Shown in pieces: positions 9,371 to 48,580 of a stretch of 64,000 nt of DNA. Each line of letters opens with the position of its first letter. The stretch's first letter is position 1. Where the stretch lies: positions 1,280,001 through 1,344,000 of the forward strand of contig OY729427.2 in assembly GCA_963422375.2 (NCBI GenBank), in the 5' to 3' direction. A program made the translations under genes and the position numbers. The notes beneath the pieces were generated by a model, which ran no database searches, had not been told where the DNA came from, and saw only the letters and a program-made list of their open reading frames with translations. The DNA comes from Bryobacterales bacterium. GTDB lineage: Bacteria; Acidobacteriota; Terriglobia; Bryobacterales; UBA6623.

Positions 9371-9519
9371 CAAGAAAGAAGATTTGGAGATTGTTGCTTG
9401 AAACATGCAAAGATGAATTTGAAGATCAAGCGTTCTTGTTGCGGACTGCTGAGGCAGAACTACTCCGTTGCGACAGCAATTCACTCAATAAATTCTCTAC
9501 TGAGAGGCGCAAAAGTCTT

Positions 9520-10547: not shown

Positions 10548-11014
10548 AAAGTCTTTTCCTAAGATACGGGCCATACTCAGTCGACTTCCGATTCAATCTG
10601 TCATCATAGCAGCCCAGATATTGAGTCTTGAATTCTCGAACTTAGGCCTGCATATTGTGATATACCGTAACTATCTACACAGTATATTTCGTACTCGAAT
10701 TTGGAGGGCCTCCTTCTTAGCAGACTGCTTGGGAACCCAGTTGCCAGTACATTCTGGCCTGGCCGATCCGAAAAGACTTTTATGCCCCTCAGTACTACTC
10801 GCCGTTCGTTTCTTGGAGAGATTGCCGAAGTAGTCTTGCGGAATAAACCTCCTCCAGTATGGATCTAAGTCTCCATTTGCGATAGTCAGTTCTGGACAAT
10901 TGCACCCGTAAAGCTCATCACAGAGTCGCCGAAATACAGGATTCTACTGCTCTGGCAACTTGCCGGATCCCGACGCCTAAGCGAATTGACATAGCGCTTT
11001 GAGATGCGTACGTA

Positions 11015-11269
11015 GTGCCTGTGACAAAACTCGTATTCCCTTGACAACAAGGACGTTAGGTCCAATCTCTCAAGGCGAAGATTTCACTGGAATGCTAGGA
11101 CTAGTCCGAAATCCTGCCAATTCTGGGTAGAGCGCGGAAATCTTCGCGATTGGCGGCCGAGCAACTTCCGACCTTGGGCCCTATATATTGTGTTTGAAGA
11201 TCCATCCGACCTCAGGATGTAGTATGAAATGCTGATCGGGCCAGAATTCAGGGGTTTTGTCACAAGCAC
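11015..11269. mobile_element. 255-bp MITE, copy 1
   Basis: Terminal IRs GTGCCTGTGACAAAAC / GTTTTGTCACAAGCAC; flanking direct repeat TACGTA; second copy at 51347-51601. Confidence 0.9.
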
Positions 11270-12491
11270 TACGTACTTCGGTCAACCGGTTGCACGCTCG
11301 TACAGCCGCTTTCCGGTGCCAGATGTCTCTCTGACGCTTGGCGAGCCTAGCTTCCTCCTTGTAGGCAGCAAGTGCGTGATCAGGAATGCGCCCTCATCCC
11401 CACGGCTTCGTGAACGTCTCGCCGAGTCTTCCCTCGGGGAACTGATCCGAGAAATACTCGGCCGACAGAGAACGATGCTTTCGAGGGACGTTGTAGATTC
11501 TCATGTGCGATGAACCCGCAAGCTCGATTCCCCATGATGGTGCAGACCAAATCGCCAAGCTTCGAAGCAATTCATACTTGGTTAAATTTTCGCCGAAGTG
11601 TGTGTCTCAATCCAAGTGCAAATATGTCGTTATTATAGTGGACATTGCTGTACTTTTGCAATTATCCTAGACTTTATGCATTCGAAACGCGGACGAATCC
11701 AAGACATATGACGTATTTATTGTCTTTGAAGAGTTCTAGTCAATCCGCCTGTAAAAGCAAGATTCTACCTGTGGATGATCGCCGATGGAGAACCTCCAGT
11801 CGCTTCACATTTCCATCAGAGGAGCGGTCTTCGCAAAACAGAACTCGCACGTGACAACCTACTCTTGTGGAACAGACGGCAAGCTGATCTTCCCTGATCC
11901 TAGCTCCAAGGCAATCCGATACTGCGGCAATAATGAACCCAATAGATGGAACTCATATCAGAACATTGCGAATGCATAATCGAGAAATCCATGTCGAAAC
12001 AGGCTCAGTGGACAATCGCAATGACCCGCAGAGTGGCACCGCGTCAACGTGTATTACCAGCTTTGACTCGCCGTGCTCTGTCCATTCGTGAACGTGAATC
12101 CACTCAGGCCGAACTCCGGTGATTCGAGCGTTGGCGAGTCTCGAGTTCTGCACGCTGTGAGTGTACGCCCAGCCGCGGCGAAGCGATCCGCGCCCTTCCG
12201 TCTAGTACGCTGCGGGATCTGCCGGTAGCACCACATCGGCACCGCGTGCAGGAGCGCTTCCGGGATCGATCTCCCGCACCGGCAGGGCGCCCCCTCTGTC
12301 CCAGAACGATGTCCTGCTATCCGGCGTCCCCTGACCAGCGTATCGCCTGCTGGGAAGTGGCAGGAATCTAGCCCGGCGCATGGACTTCGATGAAGAAGGC
12401 AACGTCGCTCCCGACATGGCGCAGCAAGTCGTAGCTCGCAGTATGCCGAGCACCAGACCTGTCTTGCACGGAAGCACTCTTGCGATACGCA

Positions 12492-13514
12492 TCACGCTGC
12501 TTTGTCGGCGACAGAGTAGTCGTGGTCCAGCAAGACCTCCCTGTAGCGGCAGGCCTCCGCGAAGTCGCCGCCGTCCTGCCGGGGCGGGGCGCCCCGGTCC
12601 AGCCACTTCCGGTAACGCTTTTCCACGCCGGTCGAGACGCACTCGGACCGCAGTCTCGCATAGCGGTCGATGTCCTCTTTCGTCAGGCGGCTCCACTCGC
12701 GCCTCTCGACGACCAGGCGCAACCCGAAGAGATCGGTCTCCTCCCAGTCCCTCAGCACTCTCGCGCGCCACCGCCTCCAAGCGCCCCGCAGGCGCGGGAA
12801 CTGCCCCGGGCTGTCGGCCAGGACCGCCCAGCAACACGCGATCCCCCTGCAATGCAATGCCGCCGCCAGCGGCTCGTGCCGAGCCAAGTGCAAGTTCAGC
12901 CCGCGCTCGCTCTCCCCCGAGTGCGCGTAGCAGAACTCGGCCGCCGGATGGTCGCCGGACGCTGCCTTGATCGGTAGCAGATCCGGAAACCGCCTGGACT
13001 TGCCCGCCTTGGTCCGAGCCGAAGCCGGAAAGGCGTCGGAGGGAACGCCAAGAGATTCGAAGTGCGCCGCCTTGGTCGGCTGGTCCAGCAGCCACCGGCC
13101 GGCGCTCTCGGACTCGAGAACGTAGTCCAATGCGAGCAGCCGCCGCTTGATGCCGCGTCGCGCCGCCCCGCGGCGCGAGAGGGAGTCCTCGCATCCGACA
13201 GACCGGCACAGGTCGGCGCCGGTCACCCGGTAGAGAGACTTCCCCGCGACAGGGACTGCATGGCCGTGCGCCTCTGCACGCCGCAGCAGTCGAACCTCCG
13301 CGCCTCCGGGTGCGTACCCGGCGTAGGACCGGAACTGCCGCCGCACGAAATACCCGCCGAGCAGCGCGGCGGCGGCCAGGAATTCGGCTTCGGCCGACCG
13401 GTACCCGAAGTCCGCCAATCCGGCCGCGCGCTCGCGAAGTTCCCCGCGGATCCCGTCGGACGCGCACTCTGAATTCCCTGCCCTCGCGGCGGTGCCGCCC
13501 TCGTCGCTCGTCAT
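12492..13514 (-). CDS. Hypothetical T4SS-associated protein with possible N-terminal winged helix (340 aa)
   Basis: ATG overlaps the upstream stop (ATGA); last gene of the operon; host-like codon usage. Confidence 0.7.
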   Translation of the reverse strand: MTSDEGGTAARAGNSECASDGIRGELRERAAGLADFGYRSAEAEFLAAAALLGGYFVRRQFRSYAGYAPGGAEVRLLRRAEAHGHAVPVAGKSLYRVTGADLCRSVGCEDSLSRRGAARRGIKRRLLALDYVLESESAGRWLLDQPTKAAHFESLGVPSDAFPASARTKAGKSRRFPDLLPIKAASGDHPAAEFCYAHSGESERGLNLHLARHEPLAAALHCRGIACCWAVLADSPGQFPRLRGAWRRWRARVLRDWEETDLFGLRLVVERREWSRLTKEDIDRYARLRSECVSTGVEKRYRKWLDRGAPPRQDGGDFAEACRYREVLLDHDYSVADKAA

Positions 13515-14470
13515 CTGGCGGGCGCCGCCTCGAGCGAGGGTGTCTCCGGATGGACCTGCCCGTCGGCATCCATCGCATAGAGCTGGAAGCCCGCGTCCGA
13601 CTTGGCCCGCAGGGCGGAATCCCGATAGTGCGACGTGGTGACCTCCACGTCGATCGATCCGCGGCCGCCGGAACCGGCCGAGGGCGACGTCTCGTACTCG
13701 ATGCGTGCGTCGGGAAAGGCCAGCTTGCCGACGACGACGGCCAGATCCAGTTCGGCGGCCGCCTGCGCGCGCGCTTCCGCCGCGGGGGCTCCGTCGCGCT
13801 TGGCCCGGTCCGCGATCCGCTTCGCAATCCTCTGCAGTTCCTCGTCGGTGCGGACGCGCAAGACACGGCCGCCGCTCGCCCTGATGGCCCCGGCTTCCTT
13901 GCGCCCCGCCCGGTACACCGCGATGTCGTGCAGCACCTGCGCGCTCCGCGCCGGCCCGGCATGGTAGGCCTGCGCGTCCCCGTCGCCCGGCTCGCGCGGA
14001 TCCACCGAGCGCTCCATGAGCCGCTTGCCGCTCTGCGTGAGCGTCGCGACCTCCAAGGAGAGGCGGCCCCTCCGGAACCGTTCCGTGCGCAGCAGGCCGG
14101 CCCGCTCGAGCTCGGCCACGGCCCGGCGGGCGCGCCGGCCGGACTCGAACACCCCGTTCAGGTCGCCAGCCTCCACCGCGCCGTAGATTCCGACCGCGCG
14201 GAGCGCCTCGACGCTGTCGGCGGCGAGCCGGTGACGGCCCCACCGGGCAACTCCGCGACCGGCCCGCTCCACGCGGTCCGCCCGCGGCTCCCAGAGCGTC
14301 TCCAGCTCCGGGGAGCGCCCGGAGCGCGGGATTGGCGGAACAGCGCGAGGTCTCGTCGTCTCTGGGCGGCGGTCCCGCTCGGGGGACTTGCCCTGAGCGG
14401 GAGAGCGAGCGAGGCCGACGGTCGGGCCGCCCCCCTCCTCCTGCGTCCGCGGATCGAGCGCCCGCCTCAC
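13511..14470 (-). CDS. Replic_Relax / MOBC-like putative relaxase (wHTH + PD-(D/E)XK-like domain)
   Basis: GTG overlaps the upstream TGA; wHTH-like segment RRAVAELERAGLLRT..LTQSG; LHDIAV; FPDARIEY...IDVEV. Confidence 0.6.
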   Translation of the reverse strand: MRRALDPRTQEEGGGPTVGLARSPAQGKSPERDRRPETTRPRAVPPIPRSGRSPELETLWEPRADRVERAGRGVARWGRHRLAADSVEALRAVGIYGAVEAGDLNGVFESGRRARRAVAELERAGLLRTERFRRGRLSLEVATLTQSGKRLMERSVDPREPGDGDAQAYHAGPARSAQVLHDIAVYRAGRKEAGAIRASGGRVLRVRTDEELQRIAKRIADRAKRDGAPAAEARAQAAAELDLAVVVGKLAFPDARIEYETSPSAGSGGRGSIDVEVTTSHYRDSALRAKSDAGFQLYAMDADGQVHPETPSLEAAPAR

Positions 14471-14775
14471 GCCTGCCCCTCCTTTTGCTCGCGGAGCCGT
14501 CTGGCCAGCTCGCTGTCGAACGTGGACCCCTGGCGGATCTCGCCTTCCAGGCGCCGCAGCTTCCGGCCCGCGTCGCCGAGGCCAAGACGCCGCGCCAGCC
14601 AGTATAGGAACGCGAACAGGTCGAACGCCAGAGCGCAGGCGTAGGCCGCGACTACGGGCCCGTGCCGCACCGCCAGCTCGTCGCGATACGGTGCCAGGTA
14701 TTCGAACTCGTCCAGCGCCAGCCAGACGGCGACGCCGCCGATCGAGATCGTCAGCCCGAACGCGATGCGCGCCAT
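14467..14775 (-). CDS. Small membrane protein (2 TM) in the T4SS operon
   Basis: 102-aa ORF tightly packed between virB8 and the relaxase-like gene; two hydrophobic stretches. Confidence 0.7.
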   Translation of the reverse strand: MARIAFGLTISIGGVAVWLALDEFEYLAPYRDELAVRHGPVVAAYACALAFDLFAFLYWLARRLGLGDAGRKLRRLEGEIRQGSTFDSELARRLREQKEGQA

Positions 14776-14778
14776 GGC

Positions 14779-15429
14779 TCAGTCCGCGATCCGGTCGCTG
14801 CGGAAGTAGGTGATCGCGAGCCCCAGCGGGTTGACCGCCAGCAGCTCGCGGGGCGGGTTCGGCAGGAAGCGAAACTCGAATTCCGACGTCCAGCGCCTGC
14901 GGCCGACCGTCCGGCCGGTCGGGTCGCGCAGCGTCTCGGTGAAGTCCACGCGCGCCCGGTAGGGCTCCTCGCGCGAGGGCTGGACCTGCACGGCGTTGAT
15001 CTCGAGCTCGGTCTCGGTGCCGTCGCCGCCCATGAACCCCACCAGTTCCCCGCTGGCCTCCTGCTCGTCCAGCAGGCGCCGCGCCAGCGGCCGGTCCAAG
15101 AACAGCAGGGAGTCCTTCCACGCGTCCAGGGCGAGACCGCGCCGCCGCTCCCGGTTCATCACCAAGAACCGCCGCAGGAAGTACTTCACTTCCGGCTTGG
15201 CCACGTCGGGCCGGTAGGCCGCCGCCTTGTAATCGACAGCCTCCGCCCGGCCGACCTCGTCGATGCGCACCACCAGCGGAGACAGGTGCTCGAAGCGGTC
15301 GAACGTGCGCCAGCAAAGCAGCAGCAGGCCCGCGCAGACCAGCGATAGAGCCCCGAGGGCGATCTTCAGGTAGCGGTTGGTGGACAGCACCTCCGCCCAG
15401 ATTTCGGCGTACGCCTCTTGCGCTTGCAT
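14779..15429 (-). CDS. virB8: VirB8/TrbF family T4SS protein
   Basis: ATG with GGAGG RBS; one TM followed by PLVVRIDEVG; C-terminal NPLGLAITYF. Confidence 0.88.
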   Translation of the reverse strand: MQAQEAYAEIWAEVLSTNRYLKIALGALSLVCAGLLLLCWRTFDRFEHLSPLVVRIDEVGRAEAVDYKAAAYRPDVAKPEVKYFLRRFLVMNRERRRGLALDAWKDSLLFLDRPLARRLLDEQEASGELVGFMGGDGTETELEINAVQVQPSREEPYRARVDFTETLRDPTGRTVGRRRWTSEFEFRFLPNPPRELLAVNPLGLAITYFRSDRIAD

Positions 15430-15440
15430 GGATTGCCTCC

Positions 15441-16328
15441 TTACGTGACGGCCCGCCGGGCGATCGACGAGGCGAACGAGCCCGCCCCGGTGACGAAGCT
15501 GCCGCCTCCGTGGAAGATCGAGCTGGTCAGCGAATGCACCTTGAACATCGCCAGCAGCGCCACCAGCAGAACCACCGACGAGTAGAAGAACCAGGTGACC
15601 TGGCCGCTCAGGCCGGACGGCACGGAGGCCCACAGCCCGTCGAGCATGAACGTGCAGAGGGCCAGGAAGGTCCAGCCCACCGCCGTGTAGAAGGAGAACT
15701 GCAGGTAGGACCGCAGCCAGCCCCAGAAGAGGAAGTCCATCCGCGGCACGAACAGCCACGGAATGAACAGCGGCCCGAGGACGGCGCAGGCCCCGGCCGC
15801 GACGCGCCCCGCCGCGATGGATGCGATCAGCAGCGCCGCGCAGGCGGTGTTGAACAGCAGGATCACGAAGGTCCAGATCAGCGAGCCCGCTCCCATGAAG
15901 AAGTCGAAGAAGCTCCACGACGTCAGGTCCCGCCAGGCCTCGTGGAACGACACCGCGAAGTTCCACGTGATGAAGCCGTCGATCTGGCGCGAGTAGAAGT
16001 CCGCGGCGCGGATCGGCAGTGTCCCGAAGGGCAGGCCCAGCCCCGGCACGTCCTGGACGTAGAAGCGGATCATGGCGAGGCTGAACGACATCGAGAGCAC
16101 CATCGGCAGGAAGCGCGACCAGGGAATGCCCTGGCCGGCGAAGGCCGTTTGGATCCCGACCCACGCGATGGTCAGCGCGGCGAGCGCCCGGAAGAGCATC
16201 AGGCCCTCGGGGACGAAGAGCGGGGCGAGGTTCTGGATCGCCTGGTCGATCGACGCGAACGCCCACAGCAGCGGGAACTCGGTCGGATCGGTCGGCGGAA
16301 CCGGCGGGGGAGTCGGCAGGAGTTGCAC
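15441..16328 (-). CDS. virB6: VirB6/TrbL family polytopic membrane protein
   Basis: Multiple TMs; LGPLFIPWLFVPRMDFLFWGWL motif; position in operon. Confidence 0.85.
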   Translation of the reverse strand: MQLLPTPPPVPPTDPTEFPLLWAFASIDQAIQNLAPLFVPEGLMLFRALAALTIAWVGIQTAFAGQGIPWSRFLPMVLSMSFSLAMIRFYVQDVPGLGLPFGTLPIRAADFYSRQIDGFITWNFAVSFHEAWRDLTSWSFFDFFMGAGSLIWTFVILLFNTACAALLIASIAAGRVAAGACAVLGPLFIPWLFVPRMDFLFWGWLRSYLQFSFYTAVGWTFLALCTFMLDGLWASVPSGLSGQVTWFFYSSVVLLVALLAMFKVHSLTSSIFHGGGSFVTGAGSFASSIARRAVT

Positions 16329-16352
16329 GGAAGGATCACCCCGGGTGGGTCG

Positions 16353-17207
16353 TCAGGGCATCCGCCAGCGCGGCCGCGGCTGGGACGCGGCCAGCGCGCT
16401 GTACTGGGCGGCCGTGTCCATCGCTCGCGCCAGGCGGTCCCGCTCGCGCTTGAGCCCGGCCAGCTCGGCTTCCAGCAGGGCGTCCAGCAGCTGGTTGGTC
16501 TGCTCCGTGCCGTGGATCTGGCGCACCTGCCCCACCGAGACCTTCCCGAGCAAGGCCGGCAGGGCCTGCGAGCCGTTGCTCGGATCGAGCGCCGCGCGCT
16601 CGAGGGCGCTGTGGGCGCGCCGACGCTCGGGGGCCAGCCTCCGGATCGATCCGAGCACCGCCATCGAGCGAACCGCGGCCGCGTCCGCCAGCTCGATGGT
16701 GGAGTGCTCGCGCCGGACCTTGGCCCGCACGTGCCCGGGCAGCGCGCGCAGCGCATCGCTCCAGTCCGGAACGGGCGCCGCCGCCCGGCCGTAGACGGAG
16801 ACGGCGCTCTGCGAGGCTCCGTTAATCACCCGCGTCCATCCGCCGCTCGTGCCGTAGCGGTTGGCCGAGGCGCTGCGCAGCCAGCGGGTGGCAGAGGCCT
16901 GGAAGCGCGAGAGCGAGCCGAGATCGCGCAGCGTGCCGGCCACGCCGGCGTAATGGTCCAAGGTGTTCGAGGCGACGGTGCCGAGGTTCTTGAGCTCGAC
17001 GAGTCGGTCCCGGGCTGCCTCGACCACGGGCCGGGCCTCCTTGATGGTCACCGGCATCAGGCCCGCGGCGCCGAGGCCGCCGCCGCCGAGGCCGAAGGCC
17101 TTGCCCACGGCCTTGCCGATGCCGCCGAAGAAGGCGCCCCAGAACGGCAGCGCGGGCGTCGCCAGCGCCAAGGCCAGCGCGGCGAGAAGGATGAGTCTCT
17201 TGGTCAT
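16353..17207 (-). CDS. VirB5/TrbJ-like secreted T4SS protein
   Basis: AAGGAG RBS, signal peptide, helical C-terminus (QTNQLLDALLE); immediately upstream of virB6. Confidence 0.6.
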   Translation of the reverse strand: MTKRLILLAALALALATPALPFWGAFFGGIGKAVGKAFGLGGGGLGAAGLMPVTIKEARPVVEAARDRLVELKNLGTVASNTLDHYAGVAGTLRDLGSLSRFQASATRWLRSASANRYGTSGGWTRVINGASQSAVSVYGRAAAPVPDWSDALRALPGHVRAKVRREHSTIELADAAAVRSMAVLGSIRRLAPERRRAHSALERAALDPSNGSQALPALLGKVSVGQVRQIHGTEQTNQLLDALLEAELAGLKRERDRLARAMDTAAQYSALAASQPRPRWRMP

Positions 17208-18424
17208 GATTTGTCTCCTTGGGTTCGGTCCCGCCCGTAGGCGGGGAGGGCCAGGTCCTCGGTCAGGTAGATGCGGATCCGGTGGCCTTCCCGGACCGTG
17301 ACCGTTGGCAGCCGGTTGAGGTACCGGTCGAGCACCCGCTCGGCCGAGCGGGCCATGCCGGCGCCCGTCGACAGGCGCGCGGCGCCGAGTCGCGTCGAGA
17401 AGGCCTCCTGCGGGCTGACGGCCTGCGTCAGACCCGCCAGGGCTCCCACCGCCCCCGCCGCGGCGAACGTGGACAGGTAGTGCCGGTCGACGCGGTCCCG
17501 CAGGCCCGTCTCGCCGATCTGGTTCAGGCCGGCGGCCTTGCCGAGGGAGACCGCGGCGCCGTCCGGCAGGATCAGGCGGTGGAAGACCACGGCCAGGCGG
17601 ATCTGGCCCCATTCCTCCACGCGGCTCGCCGCTCCGAGAGCGCGCGTGCCGCGCGGCACCAGCACGCGCTGCCGCGAGCGGTCGAAGACGTCGGCCGACA
17701 CGACGGCGTTCACCGGGCCGGCGAAGTCGCCGACAAGTCGGTTGGCCAGCACGGCCTCGAGAAACTCGCCCTCGCGCAGGACGTAGGCGCCGGTAGCCGG
17801 GACTCGGTAGGAGTCCCGGCCGGAGTCCTCCGGGACCATGCCGGCGGGAGGCGCGACCGCCGCGTCCCGCGGCGCTTCGGTCGGAATCGAGTCAGGCGGC
17901 TCGCGCGGGGGAGGATCCGCCCCGGGCGCGGCCGGGGACGAGCCCCGGGCCTGGTCCGACCGGTCGCTCTGCACCAGCGGCGGAGTGCGGAGCGAGCGGT
18001 AGCGCCGCAGGCGCTCCTCCCGCTCGATCTGCTCTTCCGGGGTCAGTTCTCGGGCGTACCCGGCTCCCGCCCCGTGGGCAGCCGCCTCGGGAGGAGCCAC
18101 GGGAGCCGGCGGGTGCGGCAGGCCGTCCGGACGCGGCGCGGGCAGGCCGAGATCCCTTTGCAGGCGCCGCTCGGCGTCGCGCTCGACTTCCTCGCGCATG
18201 CGGCGGGCGGCGCTCTCGACCGACGTCACTCCGACGCCGGACGAGGCGGAGGGTGCGGCCGCTCCGCCCTCCGGTGCCTCCGCCGCGCGCGGGTCGTCGG
18301 CCTGGCCGGGAAACGTAACCAAGGTGATCGCGATCGCGGCGGTCAGGCTCACGAGCAGCCAGGCCTGCGCGCGGGCCGGGATCGCGCCGGGCGGGCGCGG
18401 GACCTTGTCGAGAATCTTCTTCAC
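17204..18424 (-). CDS. virB10: VirB10/TrbI family protein
   Basis: TM, Pro-rich linker, EAVLANRLVGDFAGPV, GLNQIGETGLRDRVDRHY, PTVTVREGHRIRIY. Confidence 0.92.
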   Translation of the reverse strand: MKKILDKVPRPPGAIPARAQAWLLVSLTAAIAITLVTFPGQADDPRAAEAPEGGAAAPSASSGVGVTSVESAARRMREEVERDAERRLQRDLGLPAPRPDGLPHPPAPVAPPEAAAHGAGAGYARELTPEEQIEREERLRRYRSLRTPPLVQSDRSDQARGSSPAAPGADPPPREPPDSIPTEAPRDAAVAPPAGMVPEDSGRDSYRVPATGAYVLREGEFLEAVLANRLVGDFAGPVNAVVSADVFDRSRQRVLVPRGTRALGAASRVEEWGQIRLAVVFHRLILPDGAAVSLGKAAGLNQIGETGLRDRVDRHYLSTFAAAGAVGALAGLTQAVSPQEAFSTRLGAARLSTGAGMARSAERVLDRYLNRLPTVTVREGHRIRIYLTEDLALPAYGRDRTQGDKS

Positions 18425-19260
18425 GGCAGCGCCTCCTTCAGATCCCGTGCCGCCCAGATCCCGTGCCGCCGGAAGCGCAGCTTGCGCTTCCCGATCTGCA
18501 GCCAGCCGTCGGCCAGGATCCGCCGCGTCACGTACAGCCCGTCGGCGAAGTCGTACGGCACCAGCGACGGCTTGCCGTCGCGCTGCTCGTACAGCACCGG
18601 CACCTCCTCCGGGTCGGCCCGGATGTAGGTGAAGCGCTCGTCGCGCCACATCGCCCGTACCTTGAACGGAGCGGCGCGGGCCGTCCGCTCCAGCGAGTAG
18701 TCGAACCGCAGGGATCCCGGATATTCCGAGCGGAAGCGCTCGATCCCGCTCGCGATCTCGCGGTCGGCCCGCTCCTCGGCGGCCAGCGCCCTCTGCCGGG
18801 CCGCGTCGGCCTCCCGCTCGAGGCGGGCCGCCGCGTCGCGCGCCTCGAAGCGCACAGGCTCCAGCCCCCGCCGCTCCGGATCGTCCGACCCGCGCGGGCG
18901 CAGGAACAGCTTCAGGTCGGGCTCGCCCGGCTCGTCGCCGAGCTCGCGGAAGAGCAGGGTGTAGACGTTGCCCAGGTCGGTCACCAGGGTCACGTTCGTG
19001 CGGATCCCCTTCGCGGTGGGCTTGACGAAGGCGAGGTTGGCGGTGCCTTGCACGCTCCAGTAGTCGGCGTCCCCGCAGATCCAGTCGAGGATGCGCTCGT
19101 CGGGGGGCAGCACGACGGCGGTGGCGAATCTGAGCCGCGCCCGGACTTCGATCACGTCCTCGGGCCCTGCCTCGGCGTCGCGGGCCCCGGCCGGCGCCGT
19201 CCAGACCAAGGCGCAGGCCAGGGCCGGCGGGAGCAGGGATTGCAGCTTGCGGTAGTTCAT
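18421..19260 (-). CDS. virB9: VirB9/TrbG family protein
   Basis: Signal peptide; FVKPT..TNVTLVT..G.VY; PF..RAMWRD.RFTYI; LVPY. Confidence 0.9.
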   Translation of the reverse strand: MNYRKLQSLLPPALACALVWTAPAGARDAEAGPEDVIEVRARLRFATAVVLPPDERILDWICGDADYWSVQGTANLAFVKPTAKGIRTNVTLVTDLGNVYTLLFRELGDEPGEPDLKLFLRPRGSDDPERRGLEPVRFEARDAAARLEREADAARQRALAAEERADREIASGIERFRSEYPGSLRFDYSLERTARAAPFKVRAMWRDERFTYIRADPEEVPVLYEQRDGKPSLVPYDFADGLYVTRRILADGWLQIGKRKLRFRRHGIWAARDLKEALP

Positions 19261-19264
19261 CGGT

Positions 19265-21676
19265 TCACTCCTTGAGCAGGGAGTCGAGGCCGCGCTCGAA
19301 ACCGAGCTCGCGGATCGCGTCCCGGCGGCGGGCGGCCTCGACAGGGTTGGTGGTGTAGAGCCAGTAGCTGCGCTCGTCCACGCTGAGCTCCAGCACCTGG
19401 GCCGCGCCGGGCCGGTGCAGCAGCATCTGGCGCTTGGGCACGAGCGCCCGGACGGCCTCCGCCTCGGCGGGGCGGAGGCCGAAGGCCTCGACGTACTCCG
19501 AGGGATCGAGCTCGGGGTTGGCGAGGAAGATCTTGGTCAGGCAGCTCTCCGCCACGGTCCGGCAGAGGCTCCCGCTGCCTGCCGCGTCCCCGGGCGACTG
19601 CGTCGCCAGGACCACGCCGGCATTGCACTTGCGCCACGTCTTGAGGCCCTCGGCAAGATAGGCCCCGATCTGCGGGTCGGCCAGGAAGCGCCAGGCCTCG
19701 TCGACCACCAGCAGCTTCCAGCGCGTCAGCTCCTCGGGGTTCTCGATCGCCGCGGAGAGCCGGTGCAGGAGGTAGTACAGGAGCGCCCGAGCCAGCTCGG
19801 GCTTGCCGGCCGCGCTGGCCATGTCGAGCACCTGCCAGTCGGAAAGGGTGAGGGTGTCGTCGGGGTTGTCGAAGACCGCGCCCCACGCCCCGCCCTCGGT
19901 CCACGGGCCCAGGGCGGAGCGCAGCCCGCTAGGCAGCAGGCCGCGCAGGGAGGACAGCGTGCGCGAGTCGGGCTCGAGATCGCACACGGCACGGATCTGC
20001 GCCCGCAGCTCGGCACGCTCGCGGGCGTCGCAGGCCTTGCCCTCGATGTCCAGCAGCATCCGCACGAACGACTCCAGAAACAGGAGGTTGTCCGGCGTCG
20101 GCTCCAGGGCGCGGAACGGATTGAGGCGGCAGGGCAGGCCGTCGTCGGTCAGGCGCAGCTGCAGGTAGGCGCCGCCCACCAGCTCGGTCAAGTGGCGGTA
20201 GGAGCCCCCGAGGTCGAGGATGCAGACGCGCGGCGCGTACTTGCGCGCCTGAGCCAGCAGGAAGTTGAGCAGGAAGCTCTTGCCCGAGCCGGTCGCGCCG
20301 ATCACCAGCGCGTGCGAGATGTCGCCGGCGTGCGCGGAGAAGTAGTACGGCGTCCGCCTGGCCGTCTCGAAGACGGCCAGGTGCTCGTCGCCGAGGTGCC
20401 GGTCGCGCGGGCTGCCCTCCGAGACCGCCCACAGCGGCGCGAGATCGGCCGCCGCAGCCGCCGAGAGGTAGTTCCGGCGCAGCTGGCGCTCGTGGTTCCC
20501 GGGAGCCATCGCGAACCACGCGTTCAGGCCGTTGTAGGTCTCGCGATGGAAGCGGGCGTCCGCCGCCGCGGCGATGCGCAGCAGCTCCGGGCGGGCCGCC
20601 TCGACCCGCGCGTCGTCCGCTCCGCGCAGGACGACGCTCAGCGAGTGCTCCCCGAAGGGCAGCCCGTCGACCTCGAGCTCGCGCAAGGCCTCGCCCAGCT
20701 GGGCCGCCTCGGCCTCGGCCGCCTTGTCCTCGAGCGCCCCGCGGGCCTGCGGAGCCGTCTCGCCCCCCGAGGCGTGCGCCAGCATGCTGTAGCGCTTCTG
20801 GTGGTAGTGCCGTCGGGCGCCGCGAATCCGGCGGCTGGAGCGCGCCCCGTCGTCCCGCTGCCACTCGGCCGCGAGGTCGAGCTCGGCCGCGATGTCGAGG
20901 ATCCCTCCGAAGAGGTGCGCCCGGGTGACGGCCGGCGGGTCCAGCAGGGCGTAGGTCTCGACCCGCTCCGAGTCCAGGAGCAGGTGGTCGCGGTACGCTT
21001 CCACGTCGCTCAGGGCGAGCTGCCGGTCCAGCCCGTGCGGCGAAACGGCGCGGCCGGACAGGGCGGCCTGTCTCGAGTTGGCCGTGCAGGCTAGATCCCG
21101 GAACAGGTCCTCCCCGGACAGCGGCTCGAGCGGCGTGATGTCCGCCACCAGACCGCGGAAGGCCGCGACCGCTCCCTCGAAGCGCTCGCAGGCAGCGGCC
21201 AGCTGCGCGGCCAGGACGAACTTCGTCCCGTCCTGCGACAGCCAGCGCCGGAGGCGGCCCAGCAGGGCCCGGCCCCGCCCGGGCGCATCCGGGTCCGGCG
21301 CGGGCGACAGGCGGGGATCCCACAGCCAGTACACGCTCGCCTCGATCGAGTACAGGCCTCTGGCCAGCAGGTGGGCCTTGCGGGCGTCCCGGGCCCGCTC
21401 GGCGACCGCGTCGCCCGTGTCCCTCTGGGGCAGGTCCGCCAAGCGCCGCTTGCGGGCCTGCCAGCGGACGCGCCAGCCCGGATCGAGCGTCTTGAGAGCG
21501 CGGCTCCAGCGCAGGGCGGCCAGGGACAGGTCCGTCGCCGTGCGGCACTCCAGCGGCGCGCCGTGCAGACGCGCCCCGGCCAGCAGCTCGCCCCGCTTGG
21601 TGAGCACGACGCGCTCGCCGACGAAGCCGAGCCACGGAAGCTGGACGTGCAGCGAGGCGGCCTCGGAGCGCTTCAC
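19265..21676 (-). CDS. virB4: VirB4/TrbE ATPase
   Basis: Walker A GATGSGKS, Walker B LLVVDEAW, LKTWRK, ATQS. Confidence 0.95.
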   Translation of the reverse strand: MKRSEAASLHVQLPWLGFVGERVVLTKRGELLAGARLHGAPLECRTATDLSLAALRWSRALKTLDPGWRVRWQARKRRLADLPQRDTGDAVAERARDARKAHLLARGLYSIEASVYWLWDPRLSPAPDPDAPGRGRALLGRLRRWLSQDGTKFVLAAQLAAACERFEGAVAAFRGLVADITPLEPLSGEDLFRDLACTANSRQAALSGRAVSPHGLDRQLALSDVEAYRDHLLLDSERVETYALLDPPAVTRAHLFGGILDIAAELDLAAEWQRDDGARSSRRIRGARRHYHQKRYSMLAHASGGETAPQARGALEDKAAEAEAAQLGEALRELEVDGLPFGEHSLSVVLRGADDARVEAARPELLRIAAAADARFHRETYNGLNAWFAMAPGNHERQLRRNYLSAAAAADLAPLWAVSEGSPRDRHLGDEHLAVFETARRTPYYFSAHAGDISHALVIGATGSGKSFLLNFLLAQARKYAPRVCILDLGGSYRHLTELVGGAYLQLRLTDDGLPCRLNPFRALEPTPDNLLFLESFVRMLLDIEGKACDARERAELRAQIRAVCDLEPDSRTLSSLRGLLPSGLRSALGPWTEGGAWGAVFDNPDDTLTLSDWQVLDMASAAGKPELARALLYYLLHRLSAAIENPEELTRWKLLVVDEAWRFLADPQIGAYLAEGLKTWRKCNAGVVLATQSPGDAAGSGSLCRTVAESCLTKIFLANPELDPSEYVEAFGLRPAEAEAVRALVPKRQMLLHRPGAAQVLELSVDERSYWLYTTNPVEAARRRDAIRELGFERGLDSLLKE

Positions 21677-21993
21677 GGGGACACCTCCCGCGCGATCGCC
21701 AGGGGCGGCGGGCCGTCCGCTCGCAGCGCCGGGTCGTAGCGGCGGCTGCAAGCGGCCGACCGCAGCAGCACCGCCGGCAGGCAGGGGTCGTGCCGGGTCG
21801 CGAGCAGCCCGGCCCCGTATCCGCAGCCGAACAGCACGAGTCCCGCCAGCGGCGCGTTGAACGACGAGAAGGCCGCCGCGCCGACGCAGGCGGCGCCGAG
21901 GAACAGGCGCCGCTCGCAGCCCAGCAGCGTCAGCGGGCGGCTGAGCGCTGGGTAGGCCCGGTGCAGGGCCGGGCGGTCCGTCGCGTCGCTCAC
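21673..21993 (-). CDS. virB3: VirB3/TrbD family protein
   Basis: LSRPLTLLGCERRLF motif, 2 TMs, DP motif; GTGA overlaps at both ends. Confidence 0.85.
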   Translation of the reverse strand: MSDATDRPALHRAYPALSRPLTLLGCERRLFLGAACVGAAAFSSFNAPLAGLVLFGCGYGAGLLATRHDPCLPAVLLRSAACSRRYDPALRADGPPPLAIAREVSP

Positions 21994-22289
21994 GGGAACA
22001 GCCAGTTCATGAAGTTGACGGCGCCGATCGCCATGCCGACGCCGAAGATCAGGCCGGCCAGGGCCCGCTTGCTGCCGCCCTCGCCGAAGGCGAACATCAG
22101 CCCGCCGATGACGATGGCGACCAGGCTGAGGCCCCGCGCGATCGGGCCCGTGAACGCCGTCTGCAGCACCGTGACGGCCTGCAGCCACGGGCTGACGCTC
22201 TGGGCGAGGAGCGCCTGCGGCAGGGCCGCGGGCGCGAGCAGCAGCCAGGCGAGGCGCGGCGAGATGCGGAATCTGGGTCGCATGGGCAT
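21990..22289 (-). CDS. virB2: VirB2/TrbC pilin
   Basis: Signal peptide then SPW..AV..L..AFTGPIARGLSLVAIVIGGLMFAFGE, two hydrophobic helices. Confidence 0.9.
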   Translation of the reverse strand: MPMRPRFRISPRLAWLLLAPAALPQALLAQSVSPWLQAVTVLQTAFTGPIARGLSLVAIVIGGLMFAFGEGGSKRALAGLIFGVGMAIGAVNFMNWLFP

Positions 22290-22413
22290 GGGGTTGCATC
22301 CTTTGTGCGGAATCTGGGAGAGGAGTCCCGCGGGGCCGGCCTCGGAGCCGATCGGAGCCGATTCGTCGATGGTTGGAGCTTCGCGCCCGTCTAGCCGAGC
22401 CACCGGGGAACTC

Positions 22414-22453
22414 ATCTATTGATAGCTTACTGTATCTATCGATACATTGTCAA
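22414..22453 (-). promoter_or_regulatory. Putative promoter/operator of the virB operon
   Basis: Minus strand TTGACA-N18-TAAGCT with palindrome TGTATC-gata-GATACA in the spacer; AT-rich island. Confidence 0.6.
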
Positions 22454-22541
22454 GGGAATGGCTATAAATATTCGTTTTTTATTCCATTTTCTTCGCGGCG
22501 AGGCGAGATCGCCGCTTGCGCCTCCGGCCGGCGGGCCGGTC

Positions 22542-24485
22542 TCAGAGCTTGCTCGCGGCCACGGCCTCGAAGTAGCCCGTCTCGACCGGCAGGTACCACG
22601 GCTTCAGGTAGCAGTACGTCGGCGGCAGGGGATTGCGGCCGTCGTAGGCGGCCACGATCGCCTGCGCGTTGCGCAGTTCCGCGAAAGCCGCCGGCGGGAA
22701 GACCGGCTCCCGGCGGGGCGCGTACGACTTGGTCACGCCGAAGGTGCCCTTGCCGCCTCCGGCGCGCCCGCTCAGAAGGCCCACCCCGGCACGGGAGGAC
22801 TCGGAGATCGAGTACTGCTCCTTCAGCCGCTCGGCCTGGCCGCACGCCTCCGAGGCCTGCTTGCAGGACGCCTCGTCCGCCAGCGTCAGGAAGATGCGCG
22901 TGCGGAACGTCTGCAGCAGCGTCCGCCACGACTCCCCGGGCAGCGCCGACCGCAGCGAGCTGATTGACTGGGTCGCCACCAAGGCGACCAGCTGGGCCTG
23001 CCGCGACAGGCTGAAGAACTTCTCGTCCCCGCCCGGGTCGCTCTCCCCGACGGTCGCGAAGTTCTGGTACTCGTCGCAGACGAACGCCACGTCCCGCCAG
23101 GCCCGGCCCGGCTCGGCCGCCATGCGCGGGATGCGGGCCAGCACGGCCCGCTGAAAGTCTTGCTTGAGCATTACGCCGATCGCGCGCCCCAGGGCCGGGT
23201 TCGCCCCGATCGGCATGTTCAGCGCCAGAACCTTGCCCTCCTCCAGCGCCTCCGCGACCGGGGGCAGCGCCCAGCGCCCGCGGTACGGGCGGCCGTCGCG
23301 GTAGGCCTCCCGCGGCGGGCAGAACACGTCGGCCACGTCCGGCTGGTCGAACAGCGACAGGAAGACGCTGACGCCCTCCGCGATCGAGCTGCGCAGGCGG
23401 CTGTCGAGCTTGCTCCAGTCGTGGGCGTGCCACCGGATCACCGTCTGCAGCTCCCGCTGCTCCGGGCTGGCCGCATCGGGCTCGGCGAGCCTGTAAGTCG
23501 CGCCCTGTTCGTCGAGCGCCGCGATCAGCTCCGGGTCCGCGGTGACGAACATCTCCCCGGCGCCCTCGTCGTAGTCCCAGTCGCGCCGCGGCAGGGTCGC
23601 GGCGACCCGGCCGTACTCCTGAACAGCCGCACGCGCCTCGGACCGGAATCCCAGCGCCTCGCGCGCCCCGCCGATCCTAGCCTCGAGCCGGCTTTCGTCC
23701 AAGACCGTGAGGTACACGTCCCGCAGGGTGACGTAGCCGTCCGCGACGCGGTGCAGCAGGATCACGAATTTCACGAGGTTGGTGTAGGCCTGCTGCCAGA
23801 ACGGCTCCTTGCCCTTGCCGAAGAGCTGGTTGAGCAGCGACGCGATCTGGTAGGCCAGCGAGTACGGATCGAGGTCGGACTCGAGCGGGTTGTAGCACCA
23901 GTCCCCTTCGAGGCCCAGCTCGACGTAGTCGCTCGCGCGGCCGCAGTCGGCCAGCATCCGCCGCACCTGATGGCAGAAGTCGCCCTTGACTTCCAGCACC
24001 AGGCCGCCCGCGCGCAGGTCGGACCGCCCGGCGTGCCAGCCCAGCACCTGCCTGGCGAACGGGTACATGCAGCACGAGGTCTTGCCCGAGCCGACCGCTC
24101 CGAACACCGCCGTGCCCGCGTAGAGGCCCCGTCGCGGCACGGCCAGCCAGCCGGGCCGCGCGCTGGGTCCCGGCTGCGTGCGCCGGTGCGTCTCGCCGAT
24201 CACGAGCAGGGGCTGGTCGGAACGCGGCCAAGGGGGCAGACCGCAGGGCGAGGCCTCGCGCTCGCGGCGCTCGACGATGAGGCCCGCGACCGTAGCGGCC
24301 ATCAGAACCAGACAGGCGGGCGTCGCCGTCCAGCAGATCGCGTAGCCTAGCCGGAGCAGGTCGTGCGCGAAAGGCGAGCGTAGCGCGATCAAGACAAGGA
24401 CCGGATCCTCGCCGCTCCACGGCGCGAGCCAGCGCCACGCGGCAGTGCCGGCGAGCGCGGCGGCCAGCGCGAGCGCCCGCGTCAC
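22542..24485 (-). CDS. virD4: VirD4/TraD-like type IV coupling protein
   Basis: Two N-terminal TMs, Walker A FGAVGSGKT, LVLEVKGD, YNPL, EPFW, Walker B FVCDEYQ, ATQS. Confidence 0.9.
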   Translation of the reverse strand: MTRALALAAALAGTAAWRWLAPWSGEDPVLVLIALRSPFAHDLLRLGYAICWTATPACLVLMAATVAGLIVERREREASPCGLPPWPRSDQPLLVIGETHRRTQPGPSARPGWLAVPRRGLYAGTAVFGAVGSGKTSCCMYPFARQVLGWHAGRSDLRAGGLVLEVKGDFCHQVRRMLADCGRASDYVELGLEGDWCYNPLESDLDPYSLAYQIASLLNQLFGKGKEPFWQQAYTNLVKFVILLHRVADGYVTLRDVYLTVLDESRLEARIGGAREALGFRSEARAAVQEYGRVAATLPRRDWDYDEGAGEMFVTADPELIAALDEQGATYRLAEPDAASPEQRELQTVIRWHAHDWSKLDSRLRSSIAEGVSVFLSLFDQPDVADVFCPPREAYRDGRPYRGRWALPPVAEALEEGKVLALNMPIGANPALGRAIGVMLKQDFQRAVLARIPRMAAEPGRAWRDVAFVCDEYQNFATVGESDPGGDEKFFSLSRQAQLVALVATQSISSLRSALPGESWRTLLQTFRTRIFLTLADEASCKQASEACGQAERLKEQYSISESSRAGVGLLSGRAGGGKGTFGVTKSYAPRREPVFPPAAFAELRNAQAIVAAYDGRNPLPPTYCYLKPWYLPVETGYFEAVAASKL

Positions 24486-24560
24486 GCGGCCGGCTCCACG
24501 GTTGCTGCGGCGGGAGGCGTTACCGGCCCGGCCGACCGGCACCAAGGACGGGATGAACGA

Positions 24561-24598
24561 AACATATAGACATTATTATCTATCTATAGACCTGTCGC
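24561..24598 (-). promoter_or_regulatory. Putative promoter/operator of virD4
   Basis: AT-rich island GCGACAGGTCTATAGATAGATAATAATGTCTATATG resembling the virB promoter. Confidence 0.45.
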
Positions 24599-24650
24599 GG
24601 CGGCGGACCGGGCTGCGGTCACCTCCGCCGGGCGGCGGACGGCGCGGGAT

Positions 24651-26117
24651 TCAGCGCGACTCGATCCGCCCGTAGGGCTCCTCGAAATACTTCTCGAAGA
24701 TCCAGTCGGGCTGCCAGCGGTCGCGGGTCCGCTTCCGCCCGGTCAGGTCGATTTCCCCGGACGCAGGGCTGTCGACCTCCAGCGGATGGTCGTCGCCGAC
24801 CCTCGCCTGCCACTCCCGCATGAGGGCCGTCAGCCGCTCGATGCGAGCGGCCTGGGCGGGGTCGCCAGCAAGGTCCCGCGTCTCGTGCGGATCCGTCTCC
24901 AGATCGAACAGCTGCTCGCGGCCGATCTCGGGATAGCGGATGAGCTTCCAGCGCTCGTCCCGCACCGCCTTCATCAGGTCGCGGAACGAGGTGAAGACGG
25001 AGTCGCGCACCGATGCCGCCTCGCCGCGCCAGACTGGGGAGAGGTCGCGCCCGTCGAGGCCTGCGGGCGGGGCTACCCCGAGCATCGCGCACAGCGTCGG
25101 GAAAACGTCCAGCAGGTAGGAGAAGGCGCCAGACTCCCGGCCCCGCGGGACCCCCGGACCCGCGAAGACCAGCGGCGCGCCCATCGAGTGCTCGTACAGG
25201 TTCTGCTTGCCGAGCAGGCCGTGGCTGCCCACCGCGAGGCCGTGGTCGGCCGTGTAGACGACGATAGTGTTTCCCGCATGCGGCCCGGACTCGAGCTCCC
25301 GCAGGATGCGCCCGACCTGGCGGTCCAAGTGGGTGATCAGCCCGTAGTATTCGGATAGCTGGTCCTGCACCACGGCCTCGGTGCGCGGCCAAGGGCCCAG
25401 GCTCTCGTCCCGGCCTGTCATGTGACCGTTGTCGAAGGGATGCCGCGGCGCGAAGTTCGGCGGTAGCGGCGGCGGGTCGCGGTAGTACATGCGCCGGTAC
25501 TTCGGCGGCGGGTTGCGCGGGTCGTGGGGCGCGGTGAAGGCCACGTAGGCGAAGAAGGGCCGCTCGTCCCTGTAGTTGCGCAGGAACTCGATTGCGGCGT
25601 CCGCGAAGAGCGTGCTCGAGAACCGCGTGCCCTCGCGCTCGCGGAAGAGGCTCCCGTCAGGCCCGAGATCCTCCAGCGGCACCTTGACGTGATTCGACAT
25701 GCCGCCGAACATGATGCTGCGACCCTCTTTGAAGCTCTTCAGCCAAGACGGCCTGCGGTTGTGCCACTTGCCGGTCGCGAAGGTCGCGTAGCCGTTTCGC
25801 CCGAGCAGCTGCCCCAACGTGGTCTCCCCATCCATGTCCATCGGGATTCGGAAGTAGCTCCTGCCCGTGTTGAGCATCGCCCTGCTCGGCACGCAGACCG
25901 CGCCGCCTTGGGACCCGAGGCAGTAGGCCCGCCGAAAGCTGAAGCCCCGCGCCACGAGCCGGTCGAGGCTCGGCGTGCGGATGTAGGGATTGCCGTGCGC
26001 CCCGATGGTGTCCGGGCGCTGGTCGTCGGCGAGCAGCAGGAGCACGTTGGGCTGCGCCGCCTGCAGCGCGCAGGCGAGCAGCAGGAGAGGGACGAGTTTC
26101 GCGATTCGCGGGAACAA
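24651..26117 (-). CDS. Sulfatase (Cys-type, choline-sulfatase-like)
   Basis: PNVLLLLADDQ, CVPSR, GKWH, PHDP, ADHG, GKQNLYE. Confidence 0.93.
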   Translation of the reverse strand: MFPRIAKLVPLLLLACALQAAQPNVLLLLADDQRPDTIGAHGNPYIRTPSLDRLVARGFSFRRAYCLGSQGGAVCVPSRAMLNTGRSYFRIPMDMDGETTLGQLLGRNGYATFATGKWHNRRPSWLKSFKEGRSIMFGGMSNHVKVPLEDLGPDGSLFREREGTRFSSTLFADAAIEFLRNYRDERPFFAYVAFTAPHDPRNPPPKYRRMYYRDPPPLPPNFAPRHPFDNGHMTGRDESLGPWPRTEAVVQDQLSEYYGLITHLDRQVGRILRELESGPHAGNTIVVYTADHGLAVGSHGLLGKQNLYEHSMGAPLVFAGPGVPRGRESGAFSYLLDVFPTLCAMLGVAPPAGLDGRDLSPVWRGEAASVRDSVFTSFRDLMKAVRDERWKLIRYPEIGREQLFDLETDPHETRDLAGDPAQAARIERLTALMREWQARVGDDHPLEVDSPASGEIDLTGRKRTRDRWQPDWIFEKYFEEPYGRIESR

Positions 26118-26144
26118 GGCGCGAACAGTATACTCGTATCCCTC

Positions 26145-48322: not shown

Positions 48323-48580
48323 ATGAGCGTCATGGTGGCGGAGGTCTACAGGGCCTTGCTGAGCGCGGGCGCGGACGAGGAGCTGGCGCGGGAGGCGGCC
48401 TTGGCAGTGCCTGGCACTGGCGACTTGGCAACGAAAGCCGACTTGAAGGATCTGGAGCTGCGCTTGGGGGCTGACATCAAGAAGCTTGAGCTGCGGTTTG
48501 GGCGGGACATGGCGGTCTTGAAATTCGCCTACGGACCAGTAATCATTGCGCTGCTGGTCAAGCTGGCGTTCTTCCCCTGA
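48323..48580 (+). CDS. DUF1640/CCDC90-like membrane-anchored coiled-coil protein, 85 aa (2 hendecads)
   Basis: GGAGG RBS; head VYRALL.AGA.EE.A, neck LATKADL, stalk, C-terminal TM. Confidence 0.85.
   Translation: MSVMVAEVYRALLSAGADEELAREAALAVPGTGDLATKADLKDLELRLGADIKKLELRFGRDMAVLKFAYGPVIIALLVKLAFFP

Follow-up and report, generated by a model that had tools for sequence, protein, structure and literature searches.

A dispersed, genus-wide VirB/D4-type secretion system of a Bryobacterales genus as a candidate host-fixed conjugation system with a putative MOB_C-like relaxase

Introduction

Among described conjugation systems, those joining a type IV secretion system (T4SS) of mating-pair formation class T (MPF_T; VirB/Trb, P-type) to a MOB_C relaxase, such as TraX of pAD1 or MobC of CloDF13, are among the closest to the system analysed here, namely a virD4 gene and a virB2-3-4-9-10-(5)-6-8-orfA-orfB-orfC operon found in a 64-kb stretch of a Bryobacterales chromosome (G000:C1:1280001-1344000, hereafter the window; G000 is a genome of 6.0 Mb, in three contigs and 96% complete). 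They are similar in the core VirB set and in the coupling protein. MOB_C relaxases are described as non-HUH, restriction-endonuclease-like enzymes, and TraX has an N-terminal winged helix (PMC12857230, PMC6736028); OrfB resembles them in its winged helix and may do so in its catalytic domain. Unlike the TraX and MobC systems, the Bryobacterales system lies on neither a plasmid nor an ICE (integrative and conjugative element), and OrfB scores below the family cut-off. The C-terminal 249 residues of OrfB found no match in 72,556 plasmid records, and the plasmid matches of VirB4 were 27-34% identical among the 15 best listed.

The rvh T4SS of Rickettsiales is known as a protein secretor. Like the Bryobacterales system, it has been inherited vertically despite rearrangement into islets (PMC2653234); unlike rvh, the Bryobacterales system has retained a relaxase-like gene, ArdC and a gene at the VirB5 position, and the word relaxase does not occur in the main text of the rvh paper (PMC2653234). 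Exapted T4SSs are usually portrayed as devoid of a relaxase and as serving protein secretion or DNA uptake instead (PMC3548315, PMC8987985).

The outcome that we propose, transfer of chromosomal DNA among relatives, is shared by high-frequency-of-recombination (Hfr) strains, the gonococcal genetic island, mycoplasma chromosomal transfer, Streptomyces TraB and mycobacterial distributive conjugal transfer (PMC12857230). The gonococcal, mycoplasma and TraB systems sit on discrete islands, ICEs or plasmids, while the mycobacterial one uses ESX; none of these systems is described there as a genus-wide, fragmented and co-regulated VirB/D4 system with its own relaxase (PMC12857230). A literature search, whose coverage left out most subscription journals and supplements, found no paper on the present system. 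From sequence comparison we favour, with modest confidence, a host-fixed conjugation system that keeps its coupling protein, a relaxase-like protein and ArdC and would move chromosomal DNA among kin. Its mode of action would be that of an MPF_T conjugation machinery whose relaxase is of MOB_C type; it does not qualify as an ICE.

Results

VirB4 was searched for in the genus and in 16 genomes from other genera of the order. Its homologues fall into a close class (65-84% identity) and a distant, mobile class (about 40%). The loci fetched comprise, in addition to the window, 36 of the close class, 22 of the distant class and 2 that are more distant still. A close-class VirB4 is present in 30 of the 31 genus genomes, the missing one being an 87%-complete metagenome-assembled genome (MAG) in 800 contigs; virD4 is full length in 30/31, and orfB is likewise found in 30/31 genomes. 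In the other genera VirB4 was found in two of the 16 genomes, at 39% and 27% identity, and 30 of the 35 loci at >=71% identity occur in records titled Bryobacterales or Terriglobia MAGs. The ATPase motifs are intact throughout the loci examined, with the Walker motifs of VirB4 kept in 36/37 loci (the remaining locus was not covered there) and Walker A and B of VirD4 in 30/30 orthologues.

The earlier note had described the system as lacking VirB11 and had proposed a search of the rest of the genome. This claim did not survive a T2SSE-family search, which placed a VirB11/TrbB-type ATPase gene at G000:C2:21080-22075 (T2SSE E 1e-48), from contig geometry at least about 0.5 Mb from the window cluster. 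A close orthologue whose Walker A, Asp-box, Walker B and His-box motifs are intact occurs in 31/31 genomes; in some it immediately follows orfC or virD4, while in others it lies hundreds of kb off. We assign virB11 to the system because in G023, G043 and G045 it is contiguous with the operon, directly after virD4 or orfC. On C2, an old remnant of a virD4 5' end lies in front of virB11 (66% DNA identity, 132 nt), and behind it come an open reading frame (ORF) of 73 aa and then ardC. The ardC gene lies within 1.5 kb of virB11 in 29/30 loci, and ArdC matches occur in 28/28 genus genomes versus 20/44 others in the family, mobile copies counted in. ArdC is reported to act, and to be needed, in the recipient cell (PMC7213743), so that a chromosomal copy would be useful to a cell receiving DNA from kin.

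The 73-aa ORF (G000:C2:20847-21068; L001:10847-11068) encodes an acidic protein found in 27/30 virB11 loci and not seen in the fetched mobile-class loci; it has a weak DUF7391 match (E 0.015), and we regard it as a candidate DNA mimic or antirepressor.

The phylogeny of the system was compared with a species tree of RpoB/RpoC plus GyrB that spans the 31 genomes, G012 being without GyrB and G007 and G017 each entering with one of their two rpoB copies; for the system itself, one hand-picked copy per genome was used. The operon tree shared 16 of 27 splits with the species tree (18 with the other G001 copy), with a patristic correlation of 0.906. Values were similar for virD4 (16/27, r 0.908) and virB11 (18/27, r 0.919), and orfB gave 12/27 and 0.872; in the control comparison of RpoB/C with GyrB, 18/27 splits and r 0.892 were obtained, and at most 2-4 splits were matched in 500 label shuffles. 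The correlation between VirB4 and host distances was 0.906 for 37 close-class copies versus -0.055 for 21 mobile-class copies, for which it was 0.11 and 0.32 within two subclades. In addition, the median ratio of nonsynonymous to synonymous substitution rates (dN/dS) was 0.05-0.26 for all 13 genes tested (Nei-Gojobori method; 12 species pairs at most, the distant ones approaching saturation), with dS mostly like that of rpoB and gyrB; virB6 had the lowest ratio (median 0.05), and orfB is the fastest-evolving gene of the system.

A common motif, TTGACA-N3-4-ATCTAT-N2-ATAGAT, was found in the upstream regions. A position weight matrix built from the relatives, with G000 held out, gave six sites scoring above 11 bits across 6 Mb; three lie at virB2, virD4 and the C2 module. 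Palindromes of at least 8 bits precede virB2 in 32/36 regions and detached virD4 in 10/12, but orfC-coupled virD4 in 0/18; in the mobile class, the counts were 0/22 for virB2 and 0/21 for virD4. For virB11 they were detected in 22/30 regions of 330 nt and in 27/30 whole loci with 1.5-kb flanks, versus 2/30 gyrB loci of similar size. Exact palindromes number 21 in the 31 genomes, all before virB2, virD4 or virB11, and the reversed control gave none. A consensus sigma-70 scan did not call the virB2 promoter on the minus strand. Because nearly every detached module carries the same promoter-operator, the virB2, virD4 and virB11 modules likely remain one regulon. A genome-wide competence or SOS regulon is unsupported, the three other G000 sites lying before unrelated genes or none. 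One palindrome, at G000:C3:409707 (13 bits), precedes a 990-aa ORF whose start presumably resembles DNA methylases of the DUF1156 type.

Before virB2 lies a conserved leader whose 10-bp closing stem is 97.8% paired, with five pairs changed on both sides. Its covariation score, which relatedness can inflate, was not reached in 500 shuffles, and slid controls paired to at most 51%. No Rfam match was found for the leader, which may be an RNA leader or an oriT-like hairpin; the idea of multiple oriT-like copies was discarded, G000 having just one.

Dispersal was tabulated in 21 genomes of at most 10 contigs each. In 13 of them the system is split, with virB11, virD4 or orfB separated from virB4 by over 50 kb or placed on a different contig: nine genomes have the parts on one contig at distances of 87 kb to 4.3 Mb, and four have them on different contigs.

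The distant class shares with the Bryobacterales system, in most copies, the order virB2-3-4-9-10-x-6-(8-orfA)-orfB-orfC-virD4-virB11, and no virB1 was seen in it. In contrast, its loci carry RepA_C upstream of virB2 (clustering places it there in 17/22 and Pfam coordinates in two more), frequently along with ParA, a tyrosine recombinase and a resolvase; they are patchy, with up to several copies per genome, do not track the host tree and have neither the operator nor the leader stem. The gene upstream of virB2 in these elements, which had been considered as an integrase, is RepA_C, and no extra conserved gene was seen in their operon. Records titled Rhodospirillaceae, Alphaproteobacteria, Luteitalea and Acidobacteriota likewise show this gene order. 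RepA_C has no match in 12 of the 31 genomes that keep the close-class system, G000 among them, and the close class has no adjoining repA except in G014, where a mobile-class element adjoins a broken virB4 (G014:C167, L100). G021 has broken RepA_C matches, which are 14 kb away from virB11 and 49 kb away from the operon. At G046:C1:4391607-4396604 (L108), virB4 is interrupted by an 814-aa ORF. All together, the near-universal presence in the genus, the co-divergence with the host, a dN/dS well below 1, the loss of repA and the dispersal of co-regulated modules support the proposal of the earlier note that the system is domesticated and kept under selection.

The same note had reported the lack of an HUH relaxase. 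This holds within the two families searched, PF03432 and PF08751 (MOB_P, MOB_F), which gave no match in G000, while the controls matched in 2 and 1 of 14 genomes; it does not extend to relaxases in general, since OrfB emerged as a MOB_C-like candidate. The AlphaFold model of OrfB (predicted local distance difference test, pLDDT, 79) shows a winged helix and an alpha/beta domain, and the former matches MarR-type folds with Z up to 11.1 (root-mean-square deviation 3.5, 85 aligned). HHalign against 13 members above the cut-off of PF13814 (Replic_Relax), which we take to be MOB_C, gave 93.5% and E 2e-7 over residues 74-185, while 10 column shuffles reached at most 0.6%. The near-invariant residues of OrfB are H181, P253, D254, E258, E276, Y282 and K290. 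Conservation of the putative catalytic residues is 98-100% in 116 sequences including mobile relatives; H181, P253, D254, E276, Y282 and K290 stand at 99-100% and are ordered as in the H..PD..ExD..K..Y pattern of Replic_Relax members. Fold searches returned winged-helix proteins from the PDB and three unannotated phage proteins from BFVD (about 220-270 columns); no PD-(D/E)XK structure was listed, which excludes nothing as the winged helix filled the results. OrfB is thus probably a divergent Replic_Relax protein, a MOB_C-like non-HUH relaxase-like protein, and its family (1,141 representatives at E<=0.001) is a candidate new relaxase family.

The adjacent orfC may encode a relaxosome accessory or regulator. 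It is no paralogue of orfB (HHalign 0.1%; 1.0% against Replic_Relax members) and found no Pfam or PDB family, its atlas neighbours being unnamed apart from DUF5697 at 0.87, which is a lead only; its single-sequence AlphaFold model is unusable (pLDDT 36).

The intact virD4 and virB2-3-4-9-10-(5)-6-8-orfA-orfB-orfC cluster is real and chromosomal. All of its twelve frames, on the minus strand from 24485 to 12492, are open, as previously stated, and six of the ten operon junctions are 4-nt overlaps, the remaining gaps being 3-24 nt; start codons were refined to 22289 (virB2), 24485 (virD4) and 15429 (virB8). In each of three runs, one short-read contig spans the cluster and the adjoining sulfatase gene (11246-26516 twice and 11418-26516 once), with no difference from the assembly and at the depth of the neighbouring chromosome, and a fourth run covers the cluster in pieces; the best-matching run may be the source sample, so that this is an assembly check and not independent support. 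Composition is host-like, in agreement with the earlier note: the cluster GC is 0.68-0.77 (genome 0.67-0.68) and its GC at third codon positions 0.85-0.95 (genome quartiles 0.86/0.89/0.91). At the right end, a sulfatase stop stands 165 nt ahead of the virD4 start, in line with the earlier note. The reported absence of an att site, tRNA and integrase was confirmed: no tRNA occurs in the window, no att-like bounding repeat surrounds the cluster or matches the tRNA-Leu situated some 70 kb leftward, and the tyrosine recombinase matches nearest to the cluster are about 50 and 63 kb off. A large ICE reaching from that tRNA-Leu was considered and rejected, as no att repeat was found.

The coordinates are collected in Table 1. 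Homologues of virB2, B3, B4, B6, B8, B9 and B10 are present, which is the core set of an MPF_T or P-type T4SS (VirB3 being 1 bit under its cut-off), and the set appears to be a complete VirB/D4 apparatus except for virB1 and, among ORFs of at least 55 aa, virB7, counting virB11 in trans and virB5 by position. The name virB5 given previously is tentative, based on position and an N-terminal hydrophobic segment, and the protein has no Pfam or NCBIfam match (a weak atlas lead points to DUF4141, 16% of one cluster). VirB1 is often dispensable. No virB1 lytic transglycosylase gene was found in the locus, as noted before, and eight SLT matches located in other parts of the genome might supply the activity in trans; its lack is not a sign of domestication, because it is common to the mobile relatives.

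Table 1. Features of the cluster and its upstream regions, in window positions
Feature	Position	Strand	Basis
virD4 / type IV coupling protein, 647 aa	22542..24485	-	TraG-D_C and TrwB_AAD_bind above Pfam cut-off
virB2/trbC pilin	21990..22289	-	Pfam TrbC E 2e-14; ribosome-binding site and ATG conserved
virB3/trbD	21673..21993	-	Pfam VirB3 E 1e-4, 22.9 bits, slightly under cut-off 23.9
virB4/trbE ATPase, 803 aa	19265..21676	-	Pfam P-loop_TraG/CagE; TIGR00929 E 5e-99, below curated cut-off
virB9/trbG	18421..19260	-	CagX E 4e-27
virB10/trbI	17204..18424	-	TrbI E 9e-40
protein at virB5/trbJ position, secreted-type (putative assignment)	16353..17207	-	position, N-terminal hydrophobic segment
virB6/trbL	15441..16328	-	Pfam TrbL
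virB8/trbF	14779..15429	-	VirB8 E 1e-14
orfA, 102 aa, two hydrophobic segments, no family	14467..14775	-	conserved in the domesticated class and many mobile relatives
orfB, relaxase-like	13511..14470	-	winged helix (residues ~72-160) and alpha/beta domain; Replic_Relax-related
orfC, 340-aa conserved protein of no known family	12492..13514	-	coupled to orfB in nearly all loci
operator-like palindrome, consensus ATCTAT-N2-ATAGAT, virD4 promoter region	24578..24591		weight matrix 13.1 bits (G000 held out)
virB2 promoter, conserved TTGACA (22453-22448) and two operator-like palindromes	22414..22453	-	22434-22447, 9.2 bits; 22414-22427, 15.7 bits
structured leader, conserved, 10-bp closing stem with compensatory changes	22323..22417	-	single copy in genome; not in RepA-bearing relatives

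Discussion

The data are compatible with the following history. An ancestor of the genus would have captured the system from the RepA-bearing family of integrated conjugative elements, in the order virB2-3-4-9-10-5-6-8-orfA-orfB-orfC-virD4-virB11 with ardC further on. The genus would then have lost repA and any integrase, with mostly vertical inheritance since, and the cluster would have broken into a mating-pair operon, a virD4 module and a virB11-orf-ardC module, apart from one another and moving round the chromosome; occasional transfer and re-integration of modules may have produced the duplicates and shifting locations. Release of the operator would let VirB2-B11 assemble a P-type pore. 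The MOB_C-like OrfB, perhaps assisted by OrfC, would nick an oriT-like site, for which the conserved hairpin before virB2 is a possibility, and VirD4 would pump single-stranded chromosomal DNA into a neighbouring cell in an Hfr-like manner, where the recipient's own chromosomal ArdC would shield the entering strand from restriction. As no replicon or integrase is left, a nick at a resident oriT could send out the chromosome only, and the retention of a coupling protein, of putative catalytic residues and of a single-strand-binding anti-restriction protein leads us to expect DNA transfer rather than protein secretion alone. DNA export, the oriT and expression of the system are all putative at this stage.

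Several observations weigh against this reading. For the operon, the two-marker species topology is rejected by the approximately unbiased test (p 4e-83), so that its agreement with the species tree, which the earlier note had suggested checking for VirB4 and VirD4, is substantial without being exact; 5-6 of 17 strong species splits are unrecovered, in one shallow clade and around long branches, and between G009 and G024 the operon dS is 0.4-0.9 versus 0.20 for rpoB. A small number of genomes carry damaged parts (virB4 in G014, G046 and one of the G001 copies, orfB in G023, ardC in G008), so that the system is not essential. The palindrome matrix was trained on the same upstream regions, which inflates the scores of training sites, only G000 being held out. 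OrfB matches PF13814 at 16 bits versus a cut-off of 25.3 (E 0.013), for which reason we term it MOB_C-like and not a member; among 60 homologues five match at E<=0.01 and one exceeds the cut-off, and the profile match is limited to residues 74-185, with the catalytic half outside. No RNA run was listed with the cluster sequence, which gives no evidence either way on expression. Finally, the conservation of flanks that had been looked for in relatives was not found: of the flank orthologues, 1/110 is near the G000 locus versus 200/228 around gyrB, a control region that may be unusually stable. The neighbouring flank genes are themselves co-located in 38/58 pairs, and the operon of G007 and that of G017 interrupt blocks that are unbroken in G000. 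The locus therefore occurs at varying sites, whereas its distribution (30-31/31 genomes) is not patchy.

These changing flanks, together with duplicates and recombinase neighbours, are the main evidence for residual mobility, and they would suit a still-selfish, host-restricted conjugative element without integrase, whose spread among kin only, followed by homologous or insertion sequence (IS)-mediated re-integration, mimics co-divergence. Flanks are common to sister species only, and yet the location differs even between the close sisters G001 and G042. Duplicates occur in G001 (three), G011, G017, G019 and G043; some may be strain chimeras in MAGs, and that of G019, 99.5% identical with a shared flank, is probably an assembly duplicate. 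In G043, the two copies are 95.5% identical over exactly the promoter-to-ardC unit and have unrelated flanks, the G001a and G011a operons are 98% identical while rpoB is at 95.9%, and tyrosine recombinases adjoin 6/37 loci, mostly in the clade where the trees conflict. Against such an element speak the distances between essential parts, which remain intact and under their own operator, the mostly single copy per genome, and the lack of an excision joint of the cluster in four runs of flat depth, though the contigs compared drop rare variants. Integrase with att, a single contiguous unit and a patchy, host-incongruent distribution, as an ICE would have, are all wanting, and we consider a selfish element unlikely. 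An exapted protein-secretion T4SS, delivering effectors to a host or competitors, with OrfB either regulating the palindrome through its winged helix or being a nuclease substrate rather than a relaxase, would find a parallel in rvh, likewise vertical and dispersed into islets (PMC2653234), and in the many chromosomal, integrase-less T4SSs that are exaptations (PMC3548315); the clear winged helix and fast rate of OrfB fit it as well. This function is, in our judgement, rather improbable: the putative catalytic residues of OrfB are conserved as far as the mobile relatives, ArdC, an anti-restriction protein binding single-stranded DNA, stays linked to virB11, and no conserved effector-like gene was seen in the module neighbourhoods, to which the effector search was confined, the C-termini of OrfA-C being neutral or acidic.

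A DNA machine with another substrate or direction was also weighed, that is, a helper in trans for small integrated elements, a DNA-release system like that of the gonococcal island, or an aid to uptake. Genomes rich in IS elements, miniature inverted-repeat transposable elements (MITEs) and integrated RepA elements would offer substrates, recipient-side ArdC fits DNA entry, and T4SSs for DNA release and uptake have been described (PMC12857230, PMC3548315). On the other hand, the leader hairpin is single-copy in G000 and the mobile RepA elements bring their own full machinery. The retention of VirD4, VirB11 and a pilin points to contact-dependent export, ComB not being known to have VirD4 and VirB11, and these functions taken together appear distinctly improbable to us. 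As to a minimal system working without VirB11 and any relaxase, the content of the window, with neither virB11 nor an HUH relaxase gene, suggested it; virB11, however, is present in every genome with intact motifs, co-diverges with the host and bears the same operator, which refutes the VirB11 part of it at the sequence level and leaves it next to no probability.

Returning to host-fixed conjugation, its fullest form would be a permanent, host-controlled mating apparatus in which a complete VirB/D4 set, a new MOB_C-like relaxase family and recipient-side ArdC, core to the genus, scattered and under one operator, serve Hfr-like exchange among kin; we put this forward tentatively, as a possibility that falls short of an even chance. 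Domesticated phages that move host DNA, the gene transfer agents, are well known, and the apparatus would, if true, be their conjugative counterpart. A genus-wide, vertically inherited system with relaxase-like, coupling and anti-restriction functions and an operator for each piece would offer a natural test of whether host selection maintains conjugative sex, and it supplies a candidate relaxase family, a new operator and a new structured leader. The split layout also means that window-based annotation would miscall such a system as incomplete or relaxase-less.

Additional observations

In one clade of the genus (G001, G008, G009, G010, G011, G016, G018, G019, G020, G024, G041, G042, G045 and G046), the rpoB frame stays open over about 2,900-3,150 codons, versus about 1,450-1,700 in most others, and this fits a fused rpoB-rpoC gene (in G000, RpoB has 1469 and RpoC 1435 aa). 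The G006 frame, near a contig end, has 1,997 codons. Two rpoB copies are present in G007 (23 kb apart) and in G017 (11 kb), where one of the copies is also long-framed; the second G017 copy is strongly divergent. Either merodiploidy or an assembly chimera would explain these pairs.

Following ardC, G000:C2:14822-19064 carries a Slam-like lipoprotein-assembly gene and a gene for a TonB-dependent receptor; the former also follows ardC in G004 and G022, and the latter in G022. Directly after orfC, the window has a low-GC, single-copy segment (11300-12450) in which the short ORFs tested had no Pfam match, next to a 269-bp MITE-like element (11008-11276) with 23-bp terminal inverted repeats and about 63 near-full copies in the genome. 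The IS copies beside the cluster, IS1380-like (DDE_Tnp_1_4) and IS1595-like elements at 8133-10452, are frameshifted and in that sense decayed, as had been claimed, although their families are high-copy, with about 17 and 90 near-full genome copies respectively.

Farther away, two paralogous 1,500-aa lipoprotein-like ORFs are found at window 96-4742, this copy having no Pfam family, and at G000:C1:1265698-1270209. A fragment of an MmeI target-recognition domain lies amid IS remnants at 42115-43068, and three short paralogous ORFs with internal heptad-like repeats lie at 48323-52355, with another at C1:1274548; the one tested matched no Pfam family. Contigs C1 and C3 have repeats of about 7 kb in common at their ends, and identical SLT matches adjoin tRNA-Arg(CCT) calls on all three G000 contigs, which suggests a repeated element that broke the assembly.

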